In this document: piece by piece, positions 1-23,154 of the stretch
Layout: each line of letters starts with the position of its first letter
Position numbering within the stretch: position 1 is the first letter of the stretch
Assembly: GCA_021818475.1 (NCBI GenBank)
Contig: JAKADZ010000001.1
Span: 5,997 to 69,996, forward strand
Origin: Nanobdellota archaeon
GTDB taxonomy: Archaea; Nanobdellota; Nanobdellia; Pacearchaeales; GW2011-AR1
Reading direction: 5' to 3'
Length of the DNA stretch: 64,000 nt
Program-made: the position numbers and the translations under genes
Notes under the pieces: generated by a model
Databases searched by the model: none
The model's input: the letters and a program-made list of their open reading frames with translations, nothing else
What the model was told of the DNA's origin: nothing

Positions 1-3000
1 CTGGAATTCCCATAAACATTTTTTAACCTTATATCAGATGTGCAAATTATCTGCCCATTTGCATCTGTTGTCAATGAACAGCTTTTTGCAGTTGTTTGAG
101 TTATATTTCCATTAACAGATAATTTTGCAATCGGGCTTGTTGTTCCTATTCCTACATTTCCTGTATTATTTTGTATGTATAATCTTGTTGCAGTTACAGG
201 GCTGTCAACAATAGAATATCCTCCATCACCCGGTCTTAATCCAGTAATCCAATTATAAGTTGCACCTGTTAAATATTGTAACTGTGCAGAATAAGTTATG
301 TTTCCTCTTGAAATATCTATTGCTGTCCCTGCGGAACTATTTACCATAAAATTATCTAATGGGCTTGTTGTTCCTATTCCTACACTTCCTGTTGAACCAT
401 CAATAACTAATGAAGGAGTATAAGTTAAAGCACTTGGGTCTGAACCATAAGCTTGACTATTAGTTGAACGTTGTATTACAAAATTAGGGTAACCTGATGT
501 TCCAAACCCTGTATATGCTGAACCTAATTTAACAGCTCCTTGAGTAGTCCCTAAATCATTTGTTAGATAAACCTGAGAACCATAATCCCCACTTCCAGTG
601 CTTTCTAACCATACGTGCTGATTTGTTGCTGCCCCGAATCTTGAAGTTCCTGCTACATCTAATGTTGCTTGTGGAGTATTTATTCCAATTGCAACATGAC
701 TCACAGGGAAAGCAACAGAATTATCTGTGATATTAAACCTTTGTAAAATGGCTCCTGTTTTTGAAATTCCAAAAATATCCTGACCTGGTGTCCCGAATGA
801 ACCAAACAAACCATGCCCTGTATTATTAACATCAACGACAAATTGTGCAGTCCCATTAACGTGTATTCCATTTGTTGCTGAAGAGCTGAGAACATCAAGA
901 GTATATTGAGGATTAGTTGTTCCTATTCCTACATTTCCCCCTGTTGCTGACAAGAAAACATTCCCTCCTGAATTAATTGATAAATTCTGCCAATTTGCAA
1001 AATTATCTGTTGATGCTCCTATCGCCACTGCACCAACTCCATTGTCTGTTCTCTTAAATACTTGAAGATGAAAATTACTTGCAGTTTGAACATCAAGAGG
1101 ACTATTAGGTAAAGTTGTTCCTATCCCTACATTTCCCGTTCCATTCTGAATTGTTAATCTATTTGTTGCTCCATTTTCATAAATAAAGAAATTTCCATTT
1201 GGATTTGGTCCTCCTCCAGAAGTCCCCATAGCCCATCCAAGATTATTCGCATTTGTATTTATAATATCTAATCCTATTGAATTAGTTGAAGTCCCATTTA
1301 TTAAAAGAGCATTTATTCCATTATAATTTAAAGTTAAAAAATTTGTCGGGCTTGTTGTTCCTATTCCTACATTTCCATTTCTAAGAATAGTCATCTTTGT
1401 TACATAAGGAGATGTTCCTGTCGCTGCAGTATCAAATAATAAATCTCCTCCTCCCCCAGATTGAAGAACAGTTCCAATTCTTGAAATATTATTTACTCCT
1501 GCACTATATCCAAAATTGATATAACTAGTTGTTCCAACACTTCCACCGCTTTGCCAAATTCCAAGGTTTGGAGAAGCAGAATTAATATCTAATATATCAT
1601 CTGGAGAAGTTGTTCCTATTCCAACATTTCCTGAAGTTCCATTAATAAACATTCTTGAAGTTAGAACATAATTTGTATTTGCAGTTAATCCAGAATTTCC
1701 AGAAAATAATAAGTTTCCCAAAGAATCAAACTGAATTACGGATGCGGCAGTTCCTTCCGTTTGCCAATAACCTGCCGTGTTATATTGAGCAGTTCCTACC
1801 CAAGCACCATTACCTGCAGTAACTTGTCCCATAGATAAACTTTGAACACTTGAAGTTCCTTGTTTTAGTTTAAATCCAGTATATCCTCCAATTCCCCCAG
1901 CAGCATTTATTTCTAAAGTTGCTCCTGGGCTTGTTGTTCCTATTCCTACATTCCCCGTTCCATTTGCAATTACTAAATCTTTAACATTTGTTGCACCATC
2001 TGCAATATAAAAATAACCTGCCAAAGGATTTGGTGTTACTGCTACTACTCCTGCATCCCATGCAGAAATACTGTTATTATATCTTATTATTGGATAATTT
2101 GAAGTTCCTGACCCTGCTAAAGTCTGCAACTGTAATAACACCTGAGGATTAGTTGTTCCTATTCCTACATAATTAGAATTTGCATTAACAAATAAAGTCC
2201 CTCCATTCACAGTTAGATTACTGGTTAAATTTGTAGTTCCAACAACGTTTAAAGTTGCCTGAGGATTGCTTGTTCCTATGCCTACATTCCCTCCTGTTCC
2301 CCCCATTAAATAAAGATTATTTCCAATTTGCATAGGGAGGTTTGTAGCATTTGAATAATTTCTTGCATTTAATATACCATAATTTGTGGTAGGGTCAAAA
2401 TTCATAACTATTGCTCCTGATGTTGAACCTAAATCATCATAAGTTGCACTTCCAGTTGAATAAATTCTTCCAGTTGATTTCAATGATGTTGCTCTTGCAT
2501 AACCATTAACATCTAAAGCTACATTAGGTGAGAGTGTTCCAATTCCTACATTCCCTGATTGGAGTATATTAAATACTCTTCCAGAAGAAGAAGTAGTTCC
2601 ATTAACTATGCTTAAAGAGTTAGTTCCATCTTGATTATAATCATTAATAATTGTCCATCTTGGAACATTTCCATCGGTTACAGTATTAATAAAATCAATT
2701 CTTGAAGCTCTGTTAGTTGCCCCGTTTCCTGCAATTAATTTTAAATCTGCTTGTCCTGTTCCCGCACTTGCATTAATATTTATTTGCGAACTTGTTCCTC
2801 CAGAACTTTGAATATCTAATAAAGCATTTGGACTGCTTGTTCCTATTCCTACATTTCCAGTTGTATTTTGAATAGTTAATCTTGTTGCAACTCCTGTTTC
2901 ATCAAAATATAAATTACCCCCAATATTATTTATATCCCATCTTTTCCCCGTGGAAAGTGCGTCTGTAGAATTAAAAATTATTGCTGTGTTATTCCCATCT

Positions 3001-4640
3001 ATCTGAATATACCCTGGACTTGCCCCCCCATTAATTTCTAATAATCTCTGAGGATTTGTTGTTCCAATTCCTACATTCCCCGTGTTAGTAATTATCATTC
3101 TTTGATTAGCACTTGCACTTCCTCCTGTGTAAAAATTTATATTTCCTAAAACACTTACTGCTCCAAGAGTTAGACCTCCAATATCATTTGCTTGTAAAAG
3201 TGTGCTATTTGGTTGTAAAATTCCGCTTCCAGTAAAGTTTGAATTTAAAAAAGCTAAATAACCATAATGTCCACCCGATGTAGATGAACCCATTAAAATT
3301 CTTGATAGTGCAGCGTTATCTGTGGTATCTGGATTTAAGAGATTTATTTGTGTAGCAGCATTTTGATTAACATTTATCTCTAGATTTGCACTCGGACTGC
3401 TTGTTCCTATTCCTACATAATTAGCAGGATTATTCAGATAAATATTACTTCCTGATTGATTCCATGCTGCATTGTTATAAACTGTGTTATTATAAGTTAA
3501 AATATTTTGATTAAATGAAGTGTTCGCAATTATCGACGCTGTCGCATTGTATAAATTTTGAATGTTTAATGTATTATTAATTGAACTAATCTGCAAATTA
3601 GTATAAACATTTGCAGGAGCTGTCTGATTAAATGCAAATTGAGAAATGTTTGTTCCTGCTAAAAGAGTTTGAATATTTAATGTATTATTTCCTATCCAGT
3701 TCCCGTTAAAATTAGAAGCATTGATGTATCCTGAAAAAAATCCGTTTCTCCAGTTATAATTAGAATTTCCTATATCAAATAAATTATTAAATGCAGGATA
3801 TAAACTTCCGTTTGTATTTATTGTGCTGACGTTTATTGAACTTATATTATAAACATAAATTGTCTGGGCAAATAAATTTCCGCCCGTAATGCTCACTCCT
3901 CCGCCGCTGAATCCGTTGTTAAAATCAACATTTCCCAATTTTATATTCGTCCCGTTGATTAAATTTTGAATATTTGCTGTGGTATTAATTAATCCAATTC
4001 TTGAATCAGTGTAAGAATTTGCCGGAGCTGTTTGATTATAAGTCCAAGTTGCATAAGTTGAGTTGTAAGTGGAATAAATTCCTGTCGAGTTAATTAAATT
4101 CTGAATGTTTGCTGTGGTATTAATAGAAGAAACATTCTGGCTTATCTTAATAAAAATTGCATCAGTTACCGAATGGACAAATGTTGAAAGATAAGATTCT
4201 AAAATATTTAATATTCCGTTGGAATTTGACATTTGCGTAGTATTAAAATTATCCATTCCCTGCCAGTTAGCTGAATTATTCGCATAAAAAGTGTAAGGAG
4301 TATAAGCAATTTTTGTGACGTTGATTAAACTATTATCCCTGTAGTAACAAAGCCAGTATTGGTCAGAATAATTCAGATTTGTATTTTCTAAATAATACGA
4401 AATTATTCCCCGTGAATCTGTTGTAAGAGTTGAAAAATTTGAATAAACAACATTTGCGCAGTCATTTGTTGTGGAAATATTAAATGTAAAAAGAAAAGTT
4501 CCTGTGGTGATGTCTCCTGAAGAATTTATTGCCTGAATGTTTAAGTGCAAATTATCATTGATGGGAGCAGATGAAACTAAACTTAATGCAAAAACTGAAA
4601 AAAAAATTATTAATGCAAATATCCCCCTTTTCACCATCAT
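1..4640 (-). CDS. Giant secreted tail-fibre-like repeat protein, partial (N-terminus at 4640, C-terminus beyond the left edge)
   Basis: My own minus-strand translation: ATG at 4640 gives MMVKRGIFALIIFFSVFALSLVSSAP, which looks like a signal peptide. The frame was confirmed at motif codons ending at 3417, 1374 and 3. There are 13 copies of G-N-V-G-I-G-T-T-(S/N)-P and the composition is N/T/S/G rich. TSDIRLKNVYG is encoded at 41..9. It is absent from the supplied ORF track, presumably because it has no in-window stop. Confidence 0.85.
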   Translation of the reverse strand, partial: MMVKRGIFALIIFFSVFALSLVSSAPINDNLHLNIQAINSSGDITTGTFLFTFNISTTNDCANVVYSNFSTLTTDSRGIISYYLENTNLNYSDQYWLCYYRDNSLINVTKIAYTPYTFYANNSANWQGMDNFNTTQMSNSNGILNILESYLSTFVHSVTDAIFIKISQNVSSINTTANIQNLINSTGIYSTYNSTYATWTYNQTAPANSYTDSRIGLINTTANIQNLINGTNIKLGNVDFNNGFSGGGVSITGGNLFAQTIYVYNISSINVSTINTNGSLYPAFNNLFDIGNSNYNWRNGFFSGYINASNFNGNWIGNNTLNIQTLLAGTNISQFAFNQTAPANVYTNLQISSINNTLNIQNLYNATASIIANTSFNQNILTYNNTVYNNAAWNQSGSNIYLNNPANYVGIGTSSPSANLEINVNQNAATQINLLNPDTTDNAALSRILMGSSTSGGHYGYLAFLNSNFTGSGILQPNSTLLQANDIGGLTLGAVSVLGNINFYTGGSASANQRMIITNTGNVGIGTTNPQRLLEINGGASPGYIQIDGNNTAIIFNSTDALSTGKRWDINNIGGNLYFDETGVATRLTIQNTTGNVGIGTSSPNALLDIQSSGGTSSQININASAGTGQADLKLIAGNGATNRASRIDFINTVTDGNVPRWTIINDYNQDGTNSLSIVNGTTSSSGRVFNILQSGNVGIGTLSPNVALDVNGYARATSLKSTGRIYSTGSATYDDLGSTSGAIVMNFDPTTNYGILNARNYSNATNLPMQIGNNLYLMGGTGGNVGIGTSNPQATLNVVGTTNLTSNLTVNGGTLFVNANSNYVGIGTTNPQVLLQLQTLAGSGTSNYPIIRYNNSISAWDAGVVAVTPNPLAGYFYIADGATNVKDLVIANGTGNVGIGTTSPGATLEINAAGGIGGYTGFKLKQGTSSVQSLSMGQVTAGNGAWVGTAQYNTAGYWQTEGTAASVIQFDSLGNLLFSGNSGLTANTNYVLTSRMFINGTSGNVGIGTTSPDDILDINSASPNLGIWQSGGSVGTTSYINFGYSAGVNNISRIGTVLQSGGGGDLLFDTAATGTSPYVTKMTILRNGNVGIGTTSPTNFLTLNYNGINALLINGTSTNSIGLDIINTNANNLGWAMGTSGGGPNPNGNFFIYENGATNRLTIQNGTGNVGIGTTLPNSPLDVQTASNFHLQVFKRTDNGVGAVAIGASTDNFANWQNLSINSGGNVFLSATGGNVGIGTTNPQYTLDVLSSSATNGIHVNGTAQFVVDVNNTGHGLFGSFGTPGQDIFGISKTGAILQRFNITDNSVAFPVSHVAIGINTPQATLDVAGTSRFGAATNQHVWLESTGSGDYGSQVYLTNDLGTTQGAVKLGSAYTGFGTSGYPNFVIQRSTNSQAYGSDPSALTYTPSLVIDGSTGSVGIGTTSPLDNFMVNSSAGTAIDISRGNITYSAQLQYLTGATYNWITGLRPGDGGYSIVDSPVTATRLYIQNNTGNVGIGTTSPIAKLSVNGNITQTTAKSCSLTTDANGQIICTSDIRLKNVYGNS

Positions 4641-4849
4641 ATTTTTAGGGCTTAAAGGTTTAAAAATCTTGTTGGAGAGTAGAGTAAAAATTTTCCCTAC
4701 CCTTAATAACCCCGTCGTGAAAATTTTGTTTTAAAGATTTTATTTCGCAAAAACAAAGAATTTTATTTTTTAATAAAAAATAGAATTAAATCAGGAAATT
4801 TTTGAAATTTTTTACTGCTAAATTCTTATCTTTTGAGGAAAGTTTGATA

Positions 4850-5057
4850 AAGAAACCGCGTAGGTTTCGTTCATCAGCCTTGAGCACACTTTCAAGGGGA
4901 AAATGATTGTAAAGAAACCGCGTAGGTTTCGTTCATCAGCCTTGAGCACACTTTCAAGGGGAAAATGATTGTAAAGAAACCGCGTAGGTTTCGTTCATCA
5001 GCCTTGAGCAGTATCTTAAAGGGAGATGTTGATAAGAAGAACCGATAAGGTTCTGCT
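4850..5057 (-). repeat. Tandem 62-bp repeat array (family A): three near-identical units plus one diverged unit
   Basis: The unit hairpin GAAACC starts at 4852, 4914 and 4976 (period 62), with a diverged unit at about 5039. On the minus strand each unit reads TGAACGAAACCTACGCGGTTTC...CCTTGAAAGTGTGCTCAAGGCTGA, with two 6-bp hairpins and a CTGATGA junction. Confidence 0.9.
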
Positions 5058-5058
5058 T

Positions 5059-5077
5059 ATGAGCCTACACGGATTTG
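5059..5077 (-). repeat. Duplicate of the 3' end of tRNA-Ile (19 nt)
   Basis: atgagcctacacggatttg at 5059..5077 is identical to 5170..5188 (T-loop/T-stem/acceptor 3' strand of tRNA-Ile), 111 bp further downstream on the tRNA strand. Confidence 0.9.
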
Positions 5078-5170
5078 GGCATCACTAAAGTTCAGCCTCA
5101 TTCGTCAAAGCCAAATGAAACCGCAAGCGGTTCAAATCAAGAAATAAAATCCGATTTGCAATCGGATAAA

Positions 5171-5299
5171 TGAGCCTACACGGATTTGAACCGTGGACCC
5201 CTGCCTTTCTTAGGATTCAATCGAGTCCTTGAAAACAAATTCCTAAACGGGATTTGCTCTTATAAGAGCAGTGCTCTAACCGGGCTGAGCTATAGGCTC
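5171..5299 (-). tRNA. tRNA-Ile (anticodon UAU) with an intron of about 54 nt at 37/38
   Basis: Manual fold: acceptor GAGCCTA/TAGGCTC, D arm GCTC-AGCCCGGTTA-GAGC, anticodon stem CTGCT/GGCAG, loop CTTATAA, T arm CACGG-TTCAAAT-CCGTG, discriminator A. Loop positions 32-35 (CTTA) pair with intron TAAG, followed by a 3-nt bulge, as in a bulge-helix-bulge (BHB) splice motif. Confidence 0.8.
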
Positions 5300-5398
5300 C
5301 TCATCTTTGTATCTGAGCCAGGATACTTTATTTATAACATCGGCTCCTCGTATAATTGAAACAAACTTAGTATATTTAAAATTTCTTATTTAGAAAAT

Positions 5399-5410
5399 AA
5401 TGCCCCGTCC
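5399..5410 (-). repeat. Duplicate of the 3' end of tRNA-Glu (12 nt)
   Basis: aatgccccgtcc at 5399..5410 equals 5528..5539. A degenerate T-arm copy (AACCCGAATCGAATCCGAGAG on the minus strand) lies at about 5462-5482. Confidence 0.75.
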
Positions 5411-5466
5411 AGCTCGAGCCTCCGCTCATTGCTATTATATTTTTTCCAGCACTCGTGAAAACTCTC
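5409..5466 (-). repeat. Dispersed repeat family C copy (TTTTCACGAGTGCTGGAAAA...GCAATGAGCGGAGGCTCGAG)
   Basis: By eye it aligns over about 60 nt with 8475..8536 (+) and over about 45 nt with 9824..9872 (+). Confidence 0.75.
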
Positions 5467-5529
5467 GGATTCGATTCGGGTTCCCCTCGCTTAAATCTTC
5501 AGAAAAAACAGGATTTACAATCCTGTAAA

Positions 5530-5678
5530 TGCCCCGTCCGAGATTCGAACTCGGGTTACAGCCTTCCTTTGCAGGATTCGGATGAATCCGAATGAAAGTA
5601 AAGTTCTTGCGAACTTTTCATTCAATCCGCTTTCGCGTCTTGAAAGGGATGTGTCCTTGGCCTCTAGACTAACGGGGC
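5530..5678 (-). tRNA. tRNA-Glu (anticodon UUC) with a 76-nt highly structured intron at 37/38
   Basis: Acceptor GCCCCGT/ACGGGGC, D arm GTCTAGAGGCCAAGGAC (as in canonical tRNA-Glu), stem CATCC/GGCTG (one T-C mismatch), loop CTTTCA-intron-A, variable TAAC, T arm CCGAG-TTCGAAT-CTCGG. CTTT pairs with intron AAAG, followed by a GAA bulge. Confidence 0.75.
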
Positions 5679-5763
5679 ATAAAACCGTTAAGAGACTCCC
5701 TTAATGACAGTAAGGAGAGAAAAAATTAGTTTTTAAACATAACTAATAGACTATAGCCTTGAA

Positions 5764-6081
5764 TTATTCAAATTTTTTTATTAATTCATCTTTTATCATT
5801 TTTTTCTTTTCTTTTGAAATATTGAACAGAAAAGATTTAATCATTTTCTCAGAGATAGTAAATATATAATTTAATTTTATTACACTATCTTTTGGCATAC
5901 CCTCTTGTTTTGTCAAAGAAATTCCTTTCATCTTTAAATTGCTGGTTATCCCTGCAACTACAACATTCCCCTGTTCTTCAAATAAAATCAATGCAGGTCT
6001 TGTTTTAACTTCAAATGTGTCTGTATATTGGACTTCCGCTAAAACTACCTGACCAAAATTAAATTTCATCCCAAATTTCAT
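5764..6081 (-). CDS. MazF/PemK-like toxin (type II toxin-antitoxin)
   Basis: 105 aa from MKFGMKFNFGQVVLAEV...RPALIL...VVAGITSN, which resembles a PemK fold. The start overlaps the end of the upstream small gene. The track's longer ORF (to 6144) would overlap the antitoxin by 86 nt. Confidence 0.65.
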   Translation of the reverse strand: MKFGMKFNFGQVVLAEVQYTDTFEVKTRPALILFEEQGNVVVAGITSNLKMKGISLTKQEGMPKDSVIKLNYIFTISEKMIKSFLFNISKEKKKMIKDELIKKFE

Positions 6082-6286
6082 CCTCTTTATTATTCCATAA
6101 TTCTTCCATTTTAGGCTGCTGGATTTTATGCAGGAACTCATCATACTGATTTCTCTTCTTTAGAATAATAAACGTTTTTGCCATCTTTTCTAATAATTCA
6201 CTGTAAGTTTGTCGGGGGTGATCTTTTGCTTCCTTGAGCAGTTCAATCACTTTTTTATCTATCAGGATAGTTGAATCTTTTACCAT
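6059..6286 (-). CDS. Putative antitoxin partner of the MazF-like toxin
   Basis: 75 aa starting at ATG 6286 (MVKDSTILIDKKVIELLKEAK...). The track's start at 6307 is a TTG. A TTTATATA box lies about 27 nt upstream of the ATG, and the gene overlaps the toxin start by 23 nt. Confidence 0.55.
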   Translation of the reverse strand: MVKDSTILIDKKVIELLKEAKDHPRQTYSELLEKMAKTFIILKKRNQYDEFLHKIQQPKMEELWNNKEDEIWDEI

Positions 6287-6365
6287 ATATAAGTTATTAT
6301 ATATCAACTATATAAATATTTTTATATTAAATTTAGATAAACAAATTAATTAAGGGCAGAAAAGA

Positions 6366-7721
6366 CTAAATTTTCTTAACCATATAACTATCTTCCAATT
6401 TATATCCCAACTTACGATAATATTCTCTTACTCCTATTCCTGAGATTACCAGAATTTTTTTTGCACCCTCTGCTTTTGCTATTTTTTCAGCTTCTTTCAT
6501 CAGCATTTTCCCCATTCCTCGATGCTGGCTTGCTGCCGAAGATTTTTTATGAATTTCTAATGATTTTCCATAAACATGAAGTTCTCTGACAATTGCAGTT
6601 TTATCTTTTCTTGGTCTAAGTCTCAAAAGTCCGAATAGAATATCTTCATCATTTACTATTTCAATGAAAAATTCTTTGCCTTCAGAAGCATCATATCTTG
6701 TAACTTTCAATTTCATATTAATATTTTCAGTAGGATTGAACCCAATCTCTCTGAATCTTATTTCAACAATTTTATTTTTTTGTCTTCTTAATTTTTCTTC
6801 AACGTCTTTTCTTAAGTCAATTTTAGTAGTCCCTGCAATAAGATATTCCGGGGGAATCTCCCTCATAATTCTCATGACTCTGCAATATCGCGGAACAACT
6901 CTCAGCATTTCAATAAGGAGATTTTCAATCTGTTCTTTTGTATACGGCTTGTATCTCTTTTTCCAGAAATCTTTTTCAAGTTCTGCCCCTTTAATTATCT
7001 GGCACGGATAAATTTTAAGCTGATCTGGTTTAAATCTTTCATCAGAAAAAATTTTTTTGAAAAGTTCTAAATCTTTTTTTTCATTGCTTCCTGGAAGGCC
7101 GGGCATTATGTGATAACCAACTTTAAATCCGGCGTCTTTCAGCGCCTTTGTCGCATCAGCAACATCTTTCACAGAATGTCCCCTCTTTATCTTTTTGTAA
7201 ATTTTATCATCGGGCATCTGAACCCCAAGCTCGACTCTTGTTACACCAAAATCTCTCATTTCTTTTATGTACTGAATGCAGTCATCAGGCCTGGTCTCGA
7301 CGCAAAGTGCAACACATCTATGTTTGGATTTTTCATTTAATTTCTGTGCTTCAGTCAAACTCTTTGAAACCTTTTCATTGAGGGCATCAAAACATTTTTT
7401 TATAAAATCATTTTTGAATTTCTTTGGATACTGCAAAAAAGTCCCCCCCATAATTATCAGTTCAATTTTTTCAGTCGGATGATGCATAACTTCAAATGCT
7501 TTTATTCTTGCTTTAACCTGCTCATAAGCGTCGTATTTAACTTCAGACGCTCTCATGACAACAGGACTTTTTGGGGTATAACTTTGGGGGACATTTAAAG
7601 AAGGGCAATAAGTGCATGTCCCATGTTTGCAAGCTCTTGGAGGAAGCATTACTGCTACAGGAGTAATCCCGGAAATAGTCTTAGTCGGTTTTCTTATTTC
7701 ATTTTTCTTTGGATTTAACAT
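6366..7721 (-). CDS. elp3: Elp3-type radical SAM/GNAT tRNA modification enzyme
   Basis: 451 aa with an N-terminal CKHGTCTYC cluster motif and a C-terminal GNAT motif QHRGMGKMLM, colinear with archaeal Elp3. Confidence 0.85.
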   Translation of the reverse strand: MLNPKKNEIRKPTKTISGITPVAVMLPPRACKHGTCTYCPSLNVPQSYTPKSPVVMRASEVKYDAYEQVKARIKAFEVMHHPTEKIELIIMGGTFLQYPKKFKNDFIKKCFDALNEKVSKSLTEAQKLNEKSKHRCVALCVETRPDDCIQYIKEMRDFGVTRVELGVQMPDDKIYKKIKRGHSVKDVADATKALKDAGFKVGYHIMPGLPGSNEKKDLELFKKIFSDERFKPDQLKIYPCQIIKGAELEKDFWKKRYKPYTKEQIENLLIEMLRVVPRYCRVMRIMREIPPEYLIAGTTKIDLRKDVEEKLRRQKNKIVEIRFREIGFNPTENINMKLKVTRYDASEGKEFFIEIVNDEDILFGLLRLRPRKDKTAIVRELHVYGKSLEIHKKSSAASQHRGMGKMLMKEAEKIAKAEGAKKILVISGIGVREYYRKLGYKLEDSYMVKKI

Positions 7722-7761
7722 AATATCTCCTTATCGATATTCCTTTTAAAATTATCTAGAA

Positions 7762-7998
7762 TTATTTTTTATTCTCACGCTTTATAACAAAATAGTAAAT
7801 TAATGCTCCGATGAAATAAGTTAATATAATCACAAGAACCCAGATTATTTTTTCAGTGTCATTTTTGAATTTTCTTTTTACACAATCAATAAGCATTAAA
7901 ATCCAGAATACGAATGCAAATACTGCAAGCCCGAATGCAATTAACGCAAAAAAGAATCCAAAAAACCCGACTCCCCACATCATGTTTGTCCAATCCAT
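7762..7998 (-). CDS. Small membrane protein, PLD-nuclease N-terminal (PLDc_N)-like
   Basis: 78 aa with two TM helices and the pattern WILMLIDCVKR...IIWVLVIILTYFIGALIYYF. Confidence 0.6.
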   Translation of the reverse strand: MDWTNMMWGVGFFGFFFALIAFGLAVFAFVFWILMLIDCVKRKFKNDTEKIIWVLVIILTYFIGALIYYFVIKRENKK

Positions 7999-8408: not shown

Positions 8409-8474
8409 CGTCGTATGGAAATCAGCCTTGAGCAAGACTTTCAGTGGGAAAGTCAGGCGAACGAAACCGGAGGC
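8409..8474 (-). repeat. Diverged family A unit
   Basis: atcagccttgagcaagactttcagtgggaaagt matches atcagccttgagcacactttcaaggggaaaatg of the 4850 array. Confidence 0.6.
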
Positions 8475-8536
8475 GAGAGTTTTCGCGAATGCAAAGAAAA
8501 TCTTAAATGCAATGAGCGGGGGCTCGAGTAAGTCGC
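8475..8536 (+). repeat. Family C repeat copy abutting the start codon of the MTAP-APRT gene
   Basis: gagagttttcgcgaatgcaaagaaaatcttaaatgcaatgagcgggggctcgagtaagtcgc aligns with the minus strand of 5409..5466. Confidence 0.7.
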
Positions 8537-9823
8537 ATGGGGAAATTAAAGATTGGTATAATCGGAGGGAGTGGACTGGAAGATCCAAATCTCCTCGATG
8601 ATTATAAAGAAAAAGAGGTGGATACTCCGTTTGGTAAACCTTCATCTAAATTAATCACAGGAAAATTATTCGGAATTGATGTTGTAATAATTTCACGCCA
8701 CGGAAAGAAACACGAGATTCCTCCGACGCAGGTGAATAATAAAGCAAACATTTTTGCACTAAAATATGAGGGATGCAAATACATTTTGGCAACAACTGCA
8801 GTTGGTTCTTTAAGAGAAGAAATCAAACGCGGCGATTTTGTAATCCTTGACCAATTCATTGATTTTACAAAAAGAAGAGATGTAACTTTTTATGACAAAT
8901 TTGAATTCGGGGCAATTCATACTCCGATGGCAAATCCATTCTCTGAAAAATTGAGAAAAAAATTAATTGAAGCATGTTCTGAATTCAATTTCTCTCATCA
9001 TAAAACCGGGACAGTTATTACAATCGAAGGTTCAAGATTTTCAACAAGAGCAGAGAGTTATATGTTCCGCCAATGGGGGGCAGACGTAATAAATATGTCA
9101 ATAGCTCCAGAAGCAATTTTAGCAAATGAAGCAGAAGTTGAATATGCAACAATAGCAATGACTACAGATTATGACTGCTGGAAAAACGATGAGGAGCCGG
9201 TGAGCTGGGAGATGGTAAAAGAAATTATGAAAGATAATGTAGAGAAAGTAAAAAAAATTTTATTGAGGGTTGTTGAATCTTTTTCAAGGGAAGAAGAAAT
9301 AAGGAAGTTAAAAGAAAATATCAGAACTATTCCTGATTTCCCAAAACCCGGGATTATGTTCCGCGATATTACTACATTGCTGAAAGATAAGGAAAATGTG
9401 AAAAAGCTAATTGATCTTTTTTATGACAGATATAAAGAAATGGAAATAGATGCTATCGCCGGAATAGAATCGAGGGGATTTGCACTTGCGGGAATGCTTG
9501 CAGGCAGATTGGGTACAGGATTGGTTTTAATAAGAAAACCGGGAAAACTTCCTGCTGAAACAATTTCAGAAGTTTATAATCTGGAATACGGGGTTGACAG
9601 CGTTGAAATTCATAAAGATTCAATTTCTCCCGGACAAAAAATCCTTTTAATAGACGATTTAATAGCAACAGGCGGAACAGCCGGAGCATCATGCAAATTA
9701 ATCGAAGCACTTAAAGGGGAAATTGTCGAATGTTGTTTTGTAATCGAACTTCCCGATTTAAAAGGAAAAGAAAAATTAGCAAGATATCCTGTTTTCTCTC
9801 TGATTAAGTTTGAAGGCGAGTGA
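8537..9823 (+). CDS. mtnP-apt: Fusion protein: 5'-methylthioadenosine phosphorylase (N-terminal) plus adenine phosphoribosyltransferase (C-terminal)
   Basis: 428 aa. The N-terminal ~255 aa carry IGIIGGSGL, ISRHGKKHEIPP and TTDYDCW. The C-terminal ~170 aa carry PDFPKPGIMFRDIT, IAGIESRGF and LLIDDLIATGGT. Confidence 0.85.
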   Translation: MGKLKIGIIGGSGLEDPNLLDDYKEKEVDTPFGKPSSKLITGKLFGIDVVIISRHGKKHEIPPTQVNNKANIFALKYEGCKYILATTAVGSLREEIKRGDFVILDQFIDFTKRRDVTFYDKFEFGAIHTPMANPFSEKLRKKLIEACSEFNFSHHKTGTVITIEGSRFSTRAESYMFRQWGADVINMSIAPEAILANEAEVEYATIAMTTDYDCWKNDEEPVSWEMVKEIMKDNVEKVKKILLRVVESFSREEEIRKLKENIRTIPDFPKPGIMFRDITTLLKDKENVKKLIDLFYDRYKEMEIDAIAGIESRGFALAGMLAGRLGTGLVLIRKPGKLPAETISEVYNLEYGVDSVEIHKDSISPGQKILLIDDLIATGGTAGASCKLIEALKGEIVECCFVIELPDLKGKEKLARYPVFSLIKFEGE

Positions 9824-9872
9824 TTTCACGAGTGCTGGAAATTTAGTATTGCAATGAGCGAGATCAGGAGCA
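9824..9872 (+). repeat. Family C repeat copy directly after the stop codon of mtnP-apt
   Basis: tttcacgagtgctggaaatttagtattgcaatgagcgag matches the minus strand of 5409..5466. Confidence 0.7.
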
Positions 9873-9918: not shown

Positions 9919-10668
9919 TTAAGCAGAACTCGAAACTGAACAGACACATTGGGCAACAACTTTGCCATTAACTGTTTCTCCGCCTGTATTTGTCGGATAA
10001 AAATTTACGCCGCCGCAATTGCTTGCAGTTCCGCTTACATCTGCTTGTTCAACATAATTTGTAACCAAGCCAATAAAACTTCCGCTGATTGCAGAGCATG
10101 CAGAATTACATGGGACTTGCCAGATAGTATTTGTCGTAGGATTAGCCGGACGATAAGCACTGGCACTGACATACATTGCCCCGCTGCATGACGCAACTGA
10201 ATAAAATTTTGAATCAACTTTGCTTCCAACCTGGTCGCTTCCTCCTGAATTTAAAACAGGAGCAATGTCAATTTCTGTTGGAACCGAGATACTTCCTAAA
10301 TCACTTGGAGAAAAAGTAAAAGTCTGGCTTCCCAGTTCCTGAATTGAAGTGCTTTCTTTTACTACCTGACTATTTTTGCCGTCAGAAAAAACAAAATCTA
10401 TTCCGGTCAAATCTCCCTGCCCGGTCCCTCTGGAAATTGTAACAAGATAATTTCCATTTGAGTCAACTAAAACTTTGTCAATTTTTAAATCAAGGAATAA
10501 AGTTCCGAACTGAAAGCTTGCCTGCTGTGTTCCTGATTTTAACATATTTGAAACAACAACCCAGACAACTCCGATTGCAACTAAAGATAAAACAATTATT
10601 ATTAATGTGACGACAATATCTGACAAACCTTTCTTATCCCTTACTTCATTCACCTTTCTTTTTTTCAT
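9919..10668 (-). CDS. Archaeal type IV pilin-like protein (class III signal peptide)
   Basis: 249 aa. KKG|LSDIVVTLIIIVLSLVAIGVVWVVVS is a typical prepilin/archaellin-like N-terminus, and 36 aa are identical to the product of 38204..38686. Confidence 0.75.
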   Translation of the reverse strand: MKKRKVNEVRDKKGLSDIVVTLIIIVLSLVAIGVVWVVVSNMLKSGTQQASFQFGTLFLDLKIDKVLVDSNGNYLVTISRGTGQGDLTGIDFVFSDGKNSQVVKESTSIQELGSQTFTFSPSDLGSISVPTEIDIAPVLNSGGSDQVGSKVDSKFYSVASCSGAMYVSASAYRPANPTTNTIWQVPCNSACSAISGSFIGLVTNYVEQADVSGTASNCGGVNFYPTNTGGETVNGKVVAQCVCSVSSSA

Positions 10669-10720
10669 CTAATAAATTAGGTTTTTTTATTTTTAAATTA
10701 TTGTTTTGTTACCCATTAAG

Positions 10721-10846
10721 ATTAGGTGTCGTAATCAGTCTTGAACCTCTCTCAAAGGAAAGTTTGATAAAGAAAACGATTAGGTGTCGTAATCAGTCTT
10801 GAACCTCTCTCAAAGGAAAGTTTGATAAAGAAAACGATTAGTTGTC
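10721..10846 (-). repeat. Tandem 58-bp repeat (family A variant), two full units plus a partial third
   Basis: attaggtgtc recurs at 10721 and 10779, and atta at 10837 (period 58). The array begins at the stop codon of the upstream minus-strand gene. Confidence 0.85.
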
Positions 10847-11659
10847 TTTATATTTGAAGATTCCGTAAAAATAATTTCCTCTGTCATCATACTTAAAAAA
10901 TGATTGTCTGTCTTTATCATTCAAAAAATCTCCTATCTCTTTGGTATTTATTGTGTCTGAATCAAAATTCATATTCATTTCTGCTTTTAACGACGGCCAT
11001 TTTCCAAGGCTTACAAAATTTATTTCAAAATAATCATTTTCAAAAGAAGGGAGTCTGTCAAGTTTATACCCAAACTGTACCAAATTGTTGTTATACCCTT
11101 TGAACAAAAAAACAAACCTTACTGCATCAAGAAGATTGCAGTTATCCATAAGATTCTGAAAAGTCTGATTGGGTTTTGTTTTTTTGATTTCTTTTAATAC
11201 CCTGCTGTAACGGAGATAACTATATGCGATTAAATCTTCGATATTGTCCTGTGGTTTAAAATCTTCAGCAAAAAATTTTCCCAAATCTGTTTTCTCATGA
11301 ATTTCAATTTTTTTAAAGGGGAATCTGCTCTTAATCAGGGAGAGATAATCAGAATATTCTTTTTCATCTTCTGATTTCAGGAATTTATCTGCAATATCAA
11401 AAAGCTGAACTTCTTTTACTTCATTTATTGCCGCACGGATAGGCCTGAAAAAAGAAAAATTCTCCCCATCATTCATAATAGTTACTAAATCTGCTTTTCT
11501 GTCTGAGTTAAAATCATAGATATCCAGGGATAAATTTTTTTCTCTTACTTCTGTTTCTGTTTTGCTGACAGGAATAATTTCATAGTCTTTTGCTTCTGAT
11601 TGTGCAATAAGTAAACTTCCGCTGAGTGCAAGACTTAGCAATAATTTTTTCAGTTTCAT
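10838..11659 (-). CDS. Secreted hypothetical protein
   Basis: 273 aa with a signal-peptide-like N-terminus, MKLKKLLLSLALSGSLLIAQSEA. Confidence 0.6.
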   Translation of the reverse strand: MKLKKLLLSLALSGSLLIAQSEAKDYEIIPVSKTETEVREKNLSLDIYDFNSDRKADLVTIMNDGENFSFFRPIRAAINEVKEVQLFDIADKFLKSEDEKEYSDYLSLIKSRFPFKKIEIHEKTDLGKFFAEDFKPQDNIEDLIAYSYLRYSRVLKEIKKTKPNQTFQNLMDNCNLLDAVRFVFLFKGYNNNLVQFGYKLDRLPSFENDYFEINFVSLGKWPSLKAEMNMNFDSDTINTKEIGDFLNDKDRQSFFKYDDRGNYFYGIFKYKDN

Positions 11660-21192: not shown

Positions 21193-22044
21193 TTATGTAA
21201 AAAGTACATAAGCAACACACCCAAGAATTATAAGCGAAGACAAAATATTCTTCCAGTTTAATTTTTCTTTAAGGAATTTATTTGCAAGTATATAAGTTTC
21301 AATTGGTGCAATCATCATTATCAAAGTTGTGAGAATTATTCCATAATGCTGATACCCGTAATAGTTGGCAACTCTGTAGATTACATATATTATTTCAGTG
21401 ATTAATATTACGAATACACTTTTTTTATCTACCCCTTTAAAATTCGGCTTGAAAATCATAAGACTAATAATCAGCACAAAGGCGCATCTGAGAAAATAGA
21501 ATGTTAATGGAGAGTAATAATCAAGAATAAATTTGGACAGCACCAGTTCCAGTCCGAATAAAAAACTGCCGGAAATTGCGGCAATAAAATATTTGTTTAT
21601 GTGGAGATGTTCTTTTTTTATAAAAGGAAAAATTAAAGCAGCTAATGCAATAAGCGTCGGAATTATAACCTTGGTGTTTGTATCAGAAAATCCCTTGATA
21701 AATAATCCTATTATTAAAGTTATAATAATTACAAAAAAAGTTTCAACAATTAGGGCAGGTTCAATATTTGTTATCTTTGTCCTTTTTTCAGAATGAAACA
21801 TGAGAAAGTTTGCGCCTACTGCTGAAATTATTACTGCAAAAAAAATTAATACATTCTTTAGTTCAAACGCAGACGAATCCAGTTTCCAGAAAAAAAATGT
21901 TAGCGGGATCATGACAAGAACAAGAAATAAAAAACTAAGACTTTGATACAGTTTGACTCCTATTTTTTTATTCAGAAGGTTAAATTTATCGAGCACAGTC
22001 CCTGCCCCAAGTGCAATTGCCCCCAAAATTGGAATCGTTATCAT
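21193..22044 (-). CDS. EamA/DMT-family transporter
   Basis: 283 aa with about 10 predicted TM helices in two similar halves. Confidence 0.65.
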   Translation of the reverse strand: MITIPILGAIALGAGTVLDKFNLLNKKIGVKLYQSLSFLFLVLVMIPLTFFFWKLDSSAFELKNVLIFFAVIISAVGANFLMFHSEKRTKITNIEPALIVETFFVIIITLIIGLFIKGFSDTNTKVIIPTLIALAALIFPFIKKEHLHINKYFIAAISGSFLFGLELVLSKFILDYYSPLTFYFLRCAFVLIISLMIFKPNFKGVDKKSVFVILITEIIYVIYRVANYYGYQHYGIILTTLIMMIAPIETYILANKFLKEKLNWKNILSSLIILGCVAYVLFT

Positions 22045-22045
22045 T

Positions 22046-22105
22046 TGAACGACACCTCCGGTTTCTTTACACTCATTTTCCCCCTGAATTTGCCGTCAAG
22101 CCTGA
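22046..22105 (+). repeat. Left arm of a perfect 60-bp inverted repeat (one family A unit)
   Basis: tgaacgacacctccggtttctttacactcattttccccctgaatttgccgtcaagcctga is the exact reverse complement of 23095..23154 (checked base by base). Confidence 0.9.
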
Positions 22106-22219
22106 TTACCATCTCTTTTAATTAATATAATAGTAAGAGGTTTAAAAGAATTATGCACTCCCCTCCAAAGGGAAATTTTTTATCACCTCTTTTTTCATAG
22201 ATAGTTTATTATATTTATC

Positions 22220-22328
22220 AGTTGAGCAAACGCGTTAAATTTTTCTTCATTAATAATTTTTCCTAAACGGAGAAATCTGACAGAGTCGATTTCGTAGCAG
22301 TTAATCTGCGAGCGAAGCGAGCGTATCA
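22220..22328. repeat. Dispersed ~110-bp repeat family B1 copy, containing the 22-nt hairpin at 22272..22293
   Basis: AGTTGAGCAAACGCG...TTTTTCTTCATTAATAA...GAGAAATCTGACAGAGTCGATTTCGTAGCAG...GCGAGCGAAGCGAGCG aligns with 27554..27662 and 34892..34990. The hairpin is 53 nt downstream of the tRNA-Gly 3' end on the minus strand. Confidence 0.75.
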
Positions 22329-22345
22329 TAAATATTTCAAAGAAA

Positions 22346-22447
22346 TGCGCGGGCCGAGAGTCGGACTCGGATCTCCTCGTCTTTGCTGGTGAAGAGCTTA
22401 AAGTTCCCCATTGGCAACGAGAAATTCTGCCGTTTAACTACCCGCGC
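22346..22447 (-). tRNA. tRNA-Gly (anticodon GCC) with an intron of about 31 nt
   Basis: Acceptor GCGCGGG/CCCGCGC, anticodon stem TCTCG/CGAGG (T-G wobble), loop TTGCCA-intron-A, T arm CCGAG-TCCGACT-CTCGG (unusual T loop) and a weak 3-bp D stem. TTGC pairs with intron GCAA, followed by an AGA bulge. Confidence 0.7.
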
Positions 22448-22498
22448 TTATTGATTGTTATTTTTATTAGAAAACTATCATTTAAAAAATTAACACAT

Positions 22499-22969
22499 TC
22501 ATCTCTTCAGCTGATTATATTCCCACCAAGTCAAGGTAATTACCACCAAATCTAGAATGGTTAATCCTAAGAGATAAACTGAATTAGAAATTGTATACCT
22601 GTAAATCTGGTAGATAACAAAAATACTAAAGACTATTTCTGCAGTGATATAAGTCCATAATTTCTTTTTCCATAATCCGATTATCAGACCAAGTTTAATA
22701 ATTCCATGTATAAACAAATATATCGCAAGGAATAACTCTGTTTTGATAAATAAATTTGAGGAAAAATTTATCAGAAAATTTGCAACCAGATCATGCGGAT
22801 CTTCCAATAATTCATAGTGAAAAATAAACTCGAAGAATGTGCTGATTTGTTCGGGTCTGATAAAGAAGAGCAAAATTCCCCCGATAACTTCAAGAAAACT
22901 ATCCAGCCCCTTAATAAAAATACTGATATTAAATAGCTTATTCAAAATTTTTTTATTTAACAACTGCAT
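22499..22969 (-). CDS. DUF2127-like membrane protein
   Basis: 156 aa with 4 TM helices and the N-terminal pattern FIKGLDSFLEVIGGILLFF. Confidence 0.55.
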   Translation of the reverse strand: MQLLNKKILNKLFNISIFIKGLDSFLEVIGGILLFFIRPEQISTFFEFIFHYELLEDPHDLVANFLINFSSNLFIKTELFLAIYLFIHGIIKLGLIIGLWKKKLWTYITAEIVFSIFVIYQIYRYTISNSVYLLGLTILDLVVITLTWWEYNQLKR

Positions 22970-23004
22970 AAGAAAATTAAGAAAAGAGATTATATATTAT
23001 TTTC

Positions 23005-23154
23005 TTTAAATAAACCGCGTAGGTGTCGTTCATCAGGCTTGACCACACTTTCAAGGGGAAAATGATTGTAAAGAAACCGCGTAGGTGTCGTTCATCAGGC
23101 TTGACGGCAAATTCAGGGGGAAAATGAGTGTAAAGAAACCGGAGGTGTCGTTCA
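23005..23154 (-). repeat. Tandem 62-bp family A array directly abutting the tRNA-Val 3' end (right inverted-repeat arm = 23095..23154)
   Basis: Unit hairpins start at 23011, 23073 and 23135 (period 62). On the minus strand the first unit begins TGAACGACACC immediately after the tRNA-Val discriminator A. Confidence 0.9.

Follow-up and report, generated by a model that had tools for sequence, protein, structure and literature searches.

The genomes of DPANN archaea are very compact, and their non-coding DNA is little known. Within a 64-kb stretch of one such genome, which we refer to as the window, repeat units of 58-62 nt that we call family A occur at five sites: 4835-5059, 8421-8476, 10723-10849, 22046-22106 and 23007-23154. 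These units and the genes beside them are listed here in plain order.

4835-5059, minus strand: family-A array downstream of tRNA-Ile (Tandem Repeats Finder, unit searches)
About 4835-4873, minus strand: 5' partial unit of the Ile array, drifting into the sequence of the 58-nt variant
4936-4997 and 4874-4935, minus strand: two identical 62-nt units of the Ile array
4998-5059, minus strand: diverged unit of the Ile array
5060-5077, minus strand: exact 18-nt duplicate of the tRNA-Ile 3' end, CAAATCCGTGTAGGCTCA
5078-5170, minus strand: 93-nt insert separating tRNA-Ile from the duplicated 3' fragment
5171-5299, minus strand: tRNA-Ile(TAT) with a 54-nt intron (Rfam, 54 bits; ARAGORN with intron option)
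8421-8476, minus strand: single unit in the 5' leader of, and antisense to, the PNP (MTA phosphorylase-like) gene 8537-9823 (unit searches)
10723-10849, minus strand: array of 2.2 units of the 58-nt variant (Tandem Repeats Finder, unit searches)
22046-22106, plus strand: single copy, antisense to the gene for the EamA transporter (21193-22044), which is on the minus strand (unit searches)
23007-23154, minus strand: array directly after tRNA-Val (Tandem Repeats Finder, unit searches)
23007-23032, minus strand: 5' partial unit of the tRNA-Val array
23033-23094, minus strand: unit 2 of the tRNA-Val array, 62 nt, Ile-type
23095-23154, minus strand: unit 1 of the tRNA-Val array, 60 nt, identical to the EamA copy
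23155-23226, minus strand: tRNA-Val(TAC), with discriminator A at 23155 (ARAGORN, Rfam)

Searches with the unit as query (blastn and nhmmer) returned the same five sites and nothing else in the 64 kb. As full units reached E = 1e-9 to 1e-17 in these window searches, a chance origin of the matches is excluded. Tandem Repeats Finder reported a 62-nt period at 4848-5010 (2.6 copies, 100% matches) and at 23007-23155 (2.4 copies, 89% matches), and one of 58 nt at 10720-10846 (2.2 copies, 98% matches), bearing out a preliminary description of this DNA that placed 62-nt tandems near tRNA-Ile and after tRNA-Val and a 58-nt tandem elsewhere. Both single copies that it listed are present (8421-8476 and 22046-22106), the latter on the plus strand. 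All five sites lie within 4.8-23.2 kb of the 64 kb, for which we estimate p ~0.03 under uniform placement.

Family-A units share the ends 5'-TGA(A)CGAC/AACC ... TCAAGNCTGA(T)-3'. The unit sequence as first written gave two bases twice; the true sequence of the hairpin 1 part is TGAAC-GAAACC-TACGC-GGTTTC. The diverged unit at 4998-5059 indeed has AGAACC/GGTTCT instead of GAAACC/GGTTTC, but hairpin 2, earlier given as a feature of the unit, is lost in several variants. Similarly, the junction CUGAUGA is found in the Ile and Val arrays but reads CUGAUUA in the 58-nt variant.

The tRNA-Ile(TAT) gene, which ARAGORN missed on default settings, is separated from its array by 112 nt that include a terminator-like hairpin and the 18-nt duplicate of the tRNA 3' end. 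The first unit directly follows this duplicate (5060-5077), which has decayed in the relative L017. The 93-nt insert (5078-5170) contains the terminator-like hairpin, ATCCGATTGCAAATCGGAT then TTTTATTT, and also a degenerate unit-like stretch, TGATTTGAACCGCTTGCGGTTTC...GAGGCTGA. The Ile array has three full units in the window vs two in L017 (97% PNP identity).

At tRNA-Val the first unit starts at 23154, the base right after the discriminator A, exactly as had been described. No T-run lies in between, the unit start is the position of RNase Z cleavage, and no duplicated tRNA fragment accompanies the array. The attachment to tRNA 3' ends that had been proposed for the family is therefore real at this array but not at the Ile array, 112 nt away, which leaves one of the five window sites joined to a tRNA. 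Co-transcription of the array (23007-23154) with tRNA-Val is plausible from this layout, and RNase Z would set the 5' end of the array RNA because the unit starts right after the discriminator. In L025 the orthologous tRNA-Val is followed 10 nt later by a protein gene, with no array, and the array is also missing in L028.

The single unit at 22046-22106 has its 5' end 1 nt from the EamA start codon, and its reverse complement puts GGAGGTG 8 nt upstream of the ATG. It is identical at 61/61 positions, from TGAACGA to CTGAT, to 23094-23154 on the minus strand, with unrelated flanks, and so forms the left arm of a perfect 61-bp inverted repeat whose other arm is in the tRNA-Val array. Judged from the sequence, inversion between these arms is probable and would part the transporter gene from its promoter. 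The orthologue of this copy in L025 (4600-4658) differs by 3 substitutions. The PNP-leader unit, whose 5' end is broken by a second element of ~62 nt at 8475-8536, has orthologues in L017, L018 and L021/L022. The 58-nt array overlaps the stop codon of the minus-strand ORF 10838-11659, and the orthologous intergenic region of L017 is empty.

The search in other DPANN genomes that the preliminary description called for did find units in relatives, but only in close ones: they are confined to relatives with at least 82% PNP identity plus L010, and were not found in L024, L026, L028, L030 or L031. DNA scans of whole collections gave one true relative only (L010), which was the sole genuine hit among 7 matches in the metagenome contig collection. 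The genome contig collection gave 5 single chance matches in unrelated bacteria, and scans of the viral contig collection gave 1, 1 and 0 matches, both by chance. A search of the literature on DPANN intergenic repeats found nothing relevant.

Within the close relatives, orthologous sites are found both filled and empty, as is typical of MITEs. The window, L017 and L021 have the PNP-leader copy, and L023, L024 and L030 do not; the copy in the leader of an IF-2B gene is present in L023 and absent in L030; and L019 and L023 carry a copy after a 167-aa gene, with none in the window, L017 or L021. Arrays consist of 2-4 head-to-tail units with no target duplication between them, and their copy number varies among strains. 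The PNP-leader copy persists to relatives at 82% protein identity and ~77% nucleotide identity, which is compatible with some selective constraint.

Taking the window and its relatives together, we distinguished nine independent sites. One abuts a tRNA, one abuts a duplicated tRNA 3' fragment and seven adjoin protein-coding genes (three sites in the window and 4/4 further sites in relatives). The preliminary description had raised the possibility of a tRNA-targeting satellite; with 1/9 independent sites abutting a tRNA and a tRNA-Val in L025 that has no array, we find no support for it. As units sit at the ends of any kind of gene, tRNA attachment is one case among gene-end placements.

The rule common to every site is that the 5' end of the unit points at a gene end. 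At gene 3' ends, copies are in sense orientation at 6/6 independent sites, with the 5' end abutting or overlapping the co-oriented gene; the exception to abutting is the L019 copy, which lies 19 nt beyond the stop codon. At gene 5' ends, copies are antisense at 3/3 independent sites; their 5' end comes within 0-1 nt of the ATG, and GGAGGTG stands 6-8 nt ahead of it. This orientation sample comprises nine sites from two syntenic neighbourhoods, and the rule is confounded with strand, as 7/8 sites are on one DNA strand of the syntenic region. GC skew, considered as a guide to the direction of replication, only follows gene orientation. Most window genes have no family-A unit, and many bear another conserved 3' stem-loop in its place.

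The antisense sites share a further arrangement. In all five leader copies, which represent three independent sites, an old ATG lies 4 or 7 nt before TCAG and begins the only open frame. This upstream ORF runs through the element for 22-38 codons and ends on or near the start of the gene (ATGA overlap). The empty PNP and IF-2B sites have a TATA box ~25 nt before the ATG, indicating leaderless genes, and a strong Shine-Dalgarno sequence precedes just 2/58 genes in the window, one of them through the unit-derived EamA leader. We rejected the antisense frame as peptide-coding, as all five differences between L021 and L023 are non-synonymous.

To place family A among known RNA and repeat classes, we examined its folding and its ends. 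Minimum free energy z-scores ranged from -1.9 to +1.4 against dinucleotide shuffles (-1.9 to +0.3 on the antisense strand), and paired cells in the unit alignment amounted to 73% vs 71% in shuffles. Helix 1 shows slight covariation, with double changes at two pairs in a few sequences; helix 2 has no compensatory (double) change and is broken in one subfamily. Rfam at the gathering threshold reported only tRNAs in the whole window, and with the cutoff relaxed to E <= 10, a cmscan search of both strands of 4700-5400 still found no family for the unit, no C/D family and no hammerhead. The structured small-RNA array suggested by the preliminary description is thus weakly supported at best, with the slight covariation of helix 1 in its favor and the ordinary energies, helix 2 and the Rfam results against it. 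Nothing in these comparisons shows a conserved structured RNA, and we found no conserved fold with covariation of the kind that marks a structured cis-regulatory leader or riboswitch.

Several classes were rejected on specific features. A hammerhead was considered for the CUGAUGA..GAAAC sequence; in Ile units just 2 nt part the two motifs, so helix II is missing, and GAAA is absent from the Val, L010 and 58-nt variants (CUGAUGA-CGACACC), with no match in Rfam. A CRISPR array would have variable spacers, and here there are none, because whole 62-nt periods are identical; the window also encodes no Cas domains. Repeats of the ToxI type (type III toxin-antitoxin) were set aside because the gene after each array differs (DUF2127, a 249-aa protein and a giant surface protein) and none is ToxN-, AbiEii- or CptN-like. 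The sole toxin gene nearby, PemK/MazF-like (5764-6144), is upstream of tRNA-Glu and not adjacent to an array. By inspection, the ends are not complementary and have no R'/R'' core, as an integron attC site would.

Homology of the unit to the tRNA-Glu and tRNA-Ile introns or to the tRNA-Glu anticodon arm was also dropped. These tRNA parts and the unit have the 9-mer UCAAGGCUG in common, and lenient local alignment against mononucleotide shuffles gave p ~0.007 for two pairs; with strict gaps, dinucleotide shuffles and the maximum over variants, p was 0.3-0.9, and nhmmer with a dimer profile reported no unit-tRNA intron homology.

With respect to mobile repeats, no terminal inverted repeats are common to the ends TGAACGACACC and TCAGGCTTGAC (the latter is the reverse complement of the 3' end). 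Imperfect flanking direct repeats of 4-9 nt (TTAYCAT, TTTCC(CC)AT, TCAT) occur at three start-codon sites, and none were seen at the stop-codon sites or the Val array. The unit is not a single palindrome of the REP/BIME type, and the window contains no Y1 transposase or other transposase, no integrase and no reverse transcriptase.

Family A behaves like a small non-autonomous insertion element. As its copies share both ends at sites that are otherwise unrelated, on either strand, it is a discrete element. We give about even weight to the reading that it is a young, lineage-restricted, non-coding repeat of ~60 nt in one Pacearchaeota (DPANN) lineage, non-autonomous and locally amplified. Target duplications are found only where a gene would be damaged in their absence, so the data do not demonstrate strict transposition. 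Recombination or gene conversion could equally well have spread the copies, and a local process of this kind is suggested by the clustering of copies and by the absence of terminal inverted repeats and of any mobility gene in the 64 kb.

In their present positions, sense copies become the trailer of the tRNA or protein gene whose 3' end they abut or overlap; the Val array would probably be transcribed with its tRNA, with RNase Z then setting its 5' end. Antisense copies separate the gene from its original leaderless start. The old ATG stays at the promoter-defined start and opens an ORF through the element, which brings GGAGGTG, and this upstream ORF would be translationally coupled to the gene. 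Slippage or unequal crossing-over would build the arrays through local amplification. The polarity may reflect the insertions tolerated by a compact, mostly leaderless genome, perhaps combined with a polar insertion mechanism.

An alternative is that sense copies are sRNAs of ~60 nt, transcribed with the upstream tRNA or gene and cut out of its trailer or 3' UTR, that pair with the reverse-complementary leaders of EamA and PNP, cover the Shine-Dalgarno sequence and start of these genes and tie their expression to tRNA transcription. Consistent with this, the discriminator is followed directly by the unit, no T-run intervening, all sense copies are placed for read-through from the upstream gene, and in Nanoarchaeum equitans sRNA8 begins immediately after tRNA-Val(TAC) (PMC3491384). 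In addition, the sense unit contains the anti-Shine-Dalgarno motif CACCUCC, and Val unit 1 is complementary at 61/61 nt to the EamA leader, GGAGGTG included, to 1 nt from the ATG. However, the perfect complementarity is trivial because it stems from a recent duplication, and the Val array-EamA leader pair is not a conserved circuit, since the array is missing in L025, which of all relatives retaining the EamA leader copy is the closest. Given also that a terminator-like hairpin and a T-run precede the Ile array, and that neither fold stability nor covariation favors an sRNA, we consider this explanation doubtful.

We also regard as improbable that the sense unit is a transcription stop or 3'-end element built from hairpin 1 and the T-rich runs GGTTTCTTTAC and CATTTTCCCC, which would help to halt archaeal RNA polymerase or to stabilise 3' ends. 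The sense orientation at 6/6 gene 3'-end sites and the multiplied units would fit, as would the two T3-T4 runs per unit on the sense strand, with none on the antisense leader strand. These runs are nevertheless shorter than the T5-T7 that follows other tRNAs here (TTTTTTT at tRNA-Gly, a hairpin plus TTTTATTT at tRNA-Ile), most window genes have no unit and many have the other 3' stem-loop instead, and close relatives lack the unit at the same sites.

A bolder version of the insertion-element reading, to which we give a similarly small chance, is a polar element without terminal inverted repeats that would move through an RNA or single-strand intermediate, take its 5' end from tRNA 3' processing, insert at transcript ends and maintain an antisense network. 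If this were true, tRNA-linked sense arrays would yield abundant unit RNAs that pair with unit-derived leaders, Shine-Dalgarno sequence and upstream ORF included. A DPANN archaeon would then have an antisense network born of repeats, alongside a 61-bp inverted pair able to flip the EamA promoter.

It is very unlikely that integrative elements using tRNA attachment sites left the arrays behind as debris. The 18-nt duplicate of the tRNA-Ile 3' end flanking the 93-nt insert recalls such an event, as do a 41-nt insert flanked by a 10-nt copy of the tRNA-Trp 3' end and the gene between tRNA-Val and tRNA-Gly, which differs among close relatives (DUF2127 vs DUF7670). Against this, most unit sites are away from tRNAs, the window has no integrase, the Val array has no duplicated tRNA fragment, and the inserts between duplicates are just 41-93 nt.

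We see only a remote chance that the antisense orientation is the functional one, as a riboswitch-like leader of methionine-salvage or SAM-related genes with the sense arrays as by-products. The three leader sites do precede genes for an MTA-phosphorylase-like PNP, an IF-2B/MtnA-like isomerase and an EamA-family transporter. These come from just two sampled neighbourhoods, however, and slightly more distant relatives have the same genes leaderless, with the leaders absent. There is no conserved fold or Rfam match, and the L021 vs L023 leader differences follow no structural pattern.

Least credible, and largely refuted by the boxes themselves, are divergent C/D-box sRNA genes in which box C would be UGAUGA and box D CUGA. 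C/D sRNAs are described as mobile and found at gene ends (PMC3491384), the position after tRNA-Val(TAC) matches that of N. equitans sRNA8 (PMC3491384), both motifs are present where units meet in the arrays of Ile, Val and L010, and CTGA ends nearly every unit (G57, C59, G61 and A62 are invariant). Yet CUGA overlaps the UGAUGA of the next unit by 3 nt at each junction, so adjacent units cannot both own their boxes. UGAUGA itself is confined to the Ile, Val and L010 tandem junctions; the box C position reads AUGAACG in the first Val unit, CUGAUUA in the 58-nt variant, GCAACGA in L021 and GUGAGAC in L019. No D'/C' boxes occur at ~12-nt spacing, with no CUGA 12 nt after box C; candidate C' boxes (UUGAAAG, CUAAGAU) are degenerate and mostly have no D' partner; the would-be D' guide contains a 2-nt indel; and Rfam has no C/D match at E <= 10.

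Returning to the insertion-element reading, the preliminary statement that no element with this layout has been described is fair for the exact layout, although the behavior is that of small intergenic repeat families. Like REP/BIME, ERIC and the Correia elements of Neisseria, family A is a short non-coding repeat in spacers at gene ends, present singly or in small clusters, variable among strains, probably transcribed with neighbouring genes and able to donate ribosome-binding sites or 3' hairpins. Unlike REP/BIME, it has an archaeal (DPANN) host, a non-palindromic 60-nt unit, head-to-tail rather than alternating clusters and a strict polarity toward the adjacent gene; it lacks a GTAG-type head and terminal inverted repeats, and the 64 kb shows no transposase, whether RAYT-type or other. 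It resembles MITEs, including those of archaea, in being small, non-autonomous and multi-copy, with filled and empty sites and some short flanking direct repeats, but differs in its seamless tandem junctions, its lack of terminal inverted repeats and its flanking duplications, which are imperfect, vary from 4 to 9 nt and occur at start-codon sites only.

The likeness to the tRNA-sRNA dicistrons of N. equitans lies in the start right after tRNA-Val(TAC), the UGAUGA/CUGA motifs and the position at gene ends; unlike those C/D sRNAs, family A has no C'/D' boxes, its boxes overlap and are not conserved, the whole unit is conserved and identical units stand in tandem. As in ToxI repeats, short tandem near-identical units could be cut to unit-length RNAs, but no endoribonuclease toxin gene is next to them, and single and antisense copies occur. 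A conjectural parallel is with SINE-like retroposed small RNAs: family A likewise has defined ends, no terminal inverted repeats, variable flanking duplications and a possible RNA precursor from tRNA processing; it differs in having no 3' A-tail or equivalent and no internal promoter, with no reverse transcriptase seen in the 64 kb.

These findings indicate that even compact DPANN genomes carry young, strain-variable small repeats. They also point to a tolerance of insertion at start codons, in which an old leaderless ATG becomes the start of a short upstream ORF coupled to a Shine-Dalgarno-led start. Sense arrays, if expressed with tRNAs, would be a ready source of antisense RNA against unit-derived leaders. 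Moreover, the repeats make strain variation that is measurable as array copy number, as presence of copies and as the probable inversion of a transporter promoter.

A thermosome gene, intron-containing tRNAs, a G+C content of 33% and protein homologues whose source labels are Pacearchaeota or Nanoarchaeota identify the window as archaeal, and its sequence is contained, identically, in an 86-kb ENA metagenome contig. The ~60-nt repeat (family A) is real, with the following copies found by Tandem Repeats Finder (arrays) and by blastn and profile searches with the unit (single copies):

4848-5010, tandem array with a 62-nt period
10720-10846, tandem array with a 58-nt period
23007-23155, tandem array with a 62-nt period
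8421-8476, - strand, single unit copy
22046-22106, + strand, single unit copy

The blastn and profile searches also recovered the three arrays (full-unit E = 1e-9 to 1e-17) and found no further family-A units in the 64 kb. The unit sequence on the tRNA strand is UGAAC-GAAACC-UACGC-GGUUUC-UUUACAAUCAUUUUCC-CCUUGA-AAGUGUGC-UCAAGG-CUGA, essentially as the preliminary description had it.

The same description had tied the repeats to tRNA 3' ends, which is true of only part of the sites. Of the six tRNA genes in the window, four contain introns. The tRNA-Val(TAC) gene ends at 23155 and is directly adjoined by its array, whose first unit starts at 23154. The tRNA-Ile(TAT) gene ends at 5171 and its array starts at 5059; between them lies a 93-nt insert, comprising a hairpin and then TTTTATTT, and the tRNA 3' end is copied exactly (18 nt, 5060-5077), with the first, diverged unit of the array abutting this copy. 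The remaining three sites are next to protein genes: the 58-nt array extends over the stop codon of ORF 10838-11659, the copy at 8421 lies upstream of and antisense to an MTA phosphorylase-like gene (PNP), and the copy at 22046 is antisense to a transporter gene (EamA), 1 nt away from its start codon. Units occur at two of six tRNA 3' flanks in the window versus one of ~58 protein-gene 3' flanks, a modest and post hoc enrichment (p ~0.02, one-sided exact test).

A pattern search across 185,579 species genomes returned chance matches only, and a scan of JGI metagenomes yielded one true relative (L010), in which two units directly follow a protein-gene stop codon without a tRNA. Using homologues of the PNP and Na/Ca-exchanger proteins, we fetched syntenic contigs and screened these with an nhmmer profile built iteratively. 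Units were found in L017 and L025 (97% PNP identity), L019 (86%), L023 (83%) and L021 (82%), and were absent by this profile from L024 (80%), L030 and L031 (81%), L026 and L028. Absence from all relatives, which the preliminary description had held against its own reading, is not what these contigs and L010 show. Together, the window and its relatives contain nine independent insertion sites.

Independent insertion sites of family A and the sequences that carry them
Site 1, downstream of tRNA-Ile: window, L017
Site 2, PNP leader: window, L017, L018, L021
Site 3, 58-nt array: window only
Site 4, EamA leader: window, L025
Site 5, after tRNA-Val: window only
Site 6, after a protein gene: L010
Site 7, after a 167-aa gene: L019, L023
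Site 8, after a radical-SAM gene: L023
Site 9, leader of an MtnA-like isomerase gene (IF-2B): L023

Orthologous empty sites exist for the PNP leader, 58-nt array, tRNA-Val, 167-aa gene and IF-2B leader sites, and the Ile array of L017 has one unit fewer than that of the window. From presence and absence in relatives, empty sites and copy-number change, we conclude that family A is lineage-restricted and volatile, yet not strain-private. Beside tRNA-Ile in L021, a Pacearchaeota-like contig, positions 1066-7862 encode a sigma-70-type gene, a Hint/intein-domain protein and a Gp53-like protein; this gene set is unusual for an archaeon and may represent an integrated foreign element.

The unit is sense-oriented at all six independent sites at gene 3' ends, and at five of these its 5' end abuts or overlaps the gene end. 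The distance is 0 nt at both tRNA-Val and the tRNA-Ile fragment, the stop codon overlaps the first base of the unit in L010, and it falls inside hairpin 1 at the 58-nt array and the L023 radical-SAM copy. After the 167-aa gene the unit begins 0 nt from the stop codon in L023 and 19 nt past it in the orthologous L019 copy. Sense copies end 38-234 nt before the next gene. Wherever a site adjoins a gene 5' end (three independent sites), the unit is antisense, with its 5' end 0-1 nt from the ATG, so that the 5' end of the unit always faces the gene.

Most window genes are leaderless. Strong Shine-Dalgarno sequences precede two of 58 genes, one of them EamA, whose GGAGGTG is supplied by the unit. 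At the empty PNP and IF-2B sites a TATA box lies ~25 nt before the ATG; filled sites have the same TATA box, at the same distance, followed by an ATG that is a remnant of the original start. The bases after this ATG resemble the first codons of the gene (ATGGTAA vs ATGATAA for EamA; ATGGAAA vs ATGGGGAAA for PNP), and beyond it come the reverse-complemented unit, read in the one frame that is open, GGAGGTG and the intact gene. The resulting upstream ORFs span 22-38 codons. Those at EamA (window and L025) and IF-2B (L023) terminate on the start codon, in an ATGA overlap; at PNP the end falls 4 nt after the start in L021 and 7 nt before it in the window. We infer from this arrangement that the upstream ORF would be translationally coupled to the gene. 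Its peptide is not conserved, as all five L021-L023 differences change an amino acid. The L023 IF-2B spacer carries further small insertions, making the transcription start there less clear.

A second dispersed element of ~55-62 nt has copies at 8475-8536 (+) and 5413-5466 (-), with 78% identity. The former sits in the 5' end of the PNP-leader family-A copy, where GGAGGTG is destroyed, and the latter is in the spacer that separates tRNA-Glu from tRNA-Ile. CATTCGYGAAAWCTCTCG, a motif related to this element, recurs as a reverse complement at 9812-9841 and again in L021, 3' of tRNA-Ile.

The two-hairpin fold is adopted by two variants only, Ile-type and L019 (z-scores ~-1.3). Folds of the Val, 58-nt, L010 and L021 variants are no more stable than those of shuffled sequences (z = +0.5 to +1.4), and for the antisense strand z runs from -1.9 to +0.3. 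In a 16-sequence alignment, 73% of cells are paired versus 71% in shuffles. Double changes are present at two pairs of helix 1, among them AGAACC/GGTTCT, bearing out the earlier observation that compensatory changes keep hairpin 1 in the diverged Ile unit; none occurs in helix 2, which is disrupted in the L010/L021/L023 subfamily. Judged by eye, hairpin 1 reaches 8-10 bp in several variants, interrupted by one C-U mismatch, and it is probably the sole real structural element. Conservation is of primary sequence (CGAC/AACCT, GGTTTC, TTTCC and TCAAGNCTGAT). Rfam returned tRNAs only, even at E <= 10 over the Ile locus, and readings of the unit as a hammerhead, C/D-box RNA, CRISPR, ToxI or attC fail on anatomy.

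Separately, at least eight stem-loops share the loop GACU(U/C)(C/U)G(U/C)CA (+ strand: 17571, 27488, 31563, 52632; - strand: 34955, 22287, 17681), with a reverse-complement copy at 52718-52756. Their 4-5-bp stems vary yet stay complementary (AAAUC/GAUUU, GAAAC/GUUUC, CGCC/GGCG, CAUC/GAUG, AAAC/GUUU). Most lie just 3' of a gene in the same orientation, such as the thermosome and tRNA-Gly genes, and one is behind the L019 family-A unit. They have no Rfam match at gathering score and are a candidate family of 3'-end or terminator hairpins with real covariation.

The copies at 22046 and 23094 are identical over 61 nt, from TGAACGA to CTGAT, in unrelated flanks, indicating that a unit-length piece was copied precisely, inverted, ~1 kb away. 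The unit has no terminal inverted repeats, and its copies have flanking duplications only where a start codon needs regenerating; at other small inserts, duplications regenerate the tRNA 3' end (18 nt at tRNA-Ile, 10 nt at tRNA-Trp). Both ends of the 58-nt array fall in the same phase, at a CTAAT motif also found in the L017 empty site, which suggests microhomology. No transposase, integrase or reverse transcriptase is encoded within the 64-kb window, and the five window sites are confined to 18.4 kb of it (p ~0.03, our estimate for uniform placement). We conclude that the unit is a non-autonomous repeat, which could have spread via local recombination or gene conversion, or via an RNA or single-strand intermediate; the seamless unit-unit junctions suggest that arrays form by local amplification. 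Family A is most likely best described as a new small repeat family with unusual polarity, and its effect on leaderless genes is instructive.

One metagenome contig (L008; ENA ERZ27237587 k141_877623) fuses the reverse complement of window 22107-23198 to the window from 23094 onwards, its junction crossing the 61-bp perfect inverted repeat (22046-22106/23094-23154). This junction would be expected if the 987-bp inter-arm segment, containing DUF2127, tRNA-Gly and the EamA promoter with its leaderless ATG, were inverted in part of the population; EamA would then be detached from its promoter, and the promoter aimed at tRNA-Val in antisense. Because its first 44 nt take the un-inverted path, the contig is likely a chimera, assembled from two orientations that coexist.

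tRNA-Val and tRNA-Gly flank a DUF2127 gene in the window (22499-22969) and a DUF7670 gene in L025 (3838-4212); the adjoining Na/Ca exchangers share only 80% identity and the PNP proteins 97%. This stretch is a variable islet beside a tRNA gene. tRNA-Gly(GCC) (22346-22447) has a 31-nt intron in the window and L025, not in L028, and in tRNA-Glu(UUC) (5529-5679) a 76-nt intron is confined to the window and L017, with none in L019, L021, L023, L024 or L030. Both introns are recent gains, or losses elsewhere, in the lineage carrying the repeats. The last 10 nt of tRNA-Trp(CCA) (61981-62093), CCGCGCCCAT, recur 41 nt downstream (region 61878-61981, - strand), and a degenerate third copy, TTCCGCACCA, follows another 43 nt on. 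The spacers, GAAAATTTCCTATTTTCA and GAAATTTTCTATTTCA, resemble each other, and the region is a tandem repeat of ~51-53 nt with the tRNA 3' end as part of it; the second spacer shares its initial TGAACGA with family A but is otherwise unrelated to it.

Elsewhere in the window, a very large ORF (1-4640, - strand) runs off the left end from a start at ~4640. Its N-terminus resembles a signal peptide, and a conserved motif of ~26-73 nt (TGTTCCTATTCCTACATTTCC...) recurs in it 12-14 times, irregularly spaced at 117-549 nt; the ORF encodes a repeat-domain surface protein. The type I restriction-modification system at 42594-51420 (HsdR-like, DUF5677, HsdS, HsdM) occupies the lowest-G+C stretch (~30%) and may have been acquired. 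Finally, a 108-nt inverted repeat (10528-10635 and 38213-38320, 81% complementary) links the 5' parts of ORF 9919-10668 (-) and ORF 38177-38686 (+), which probably have paralogous N-termini.
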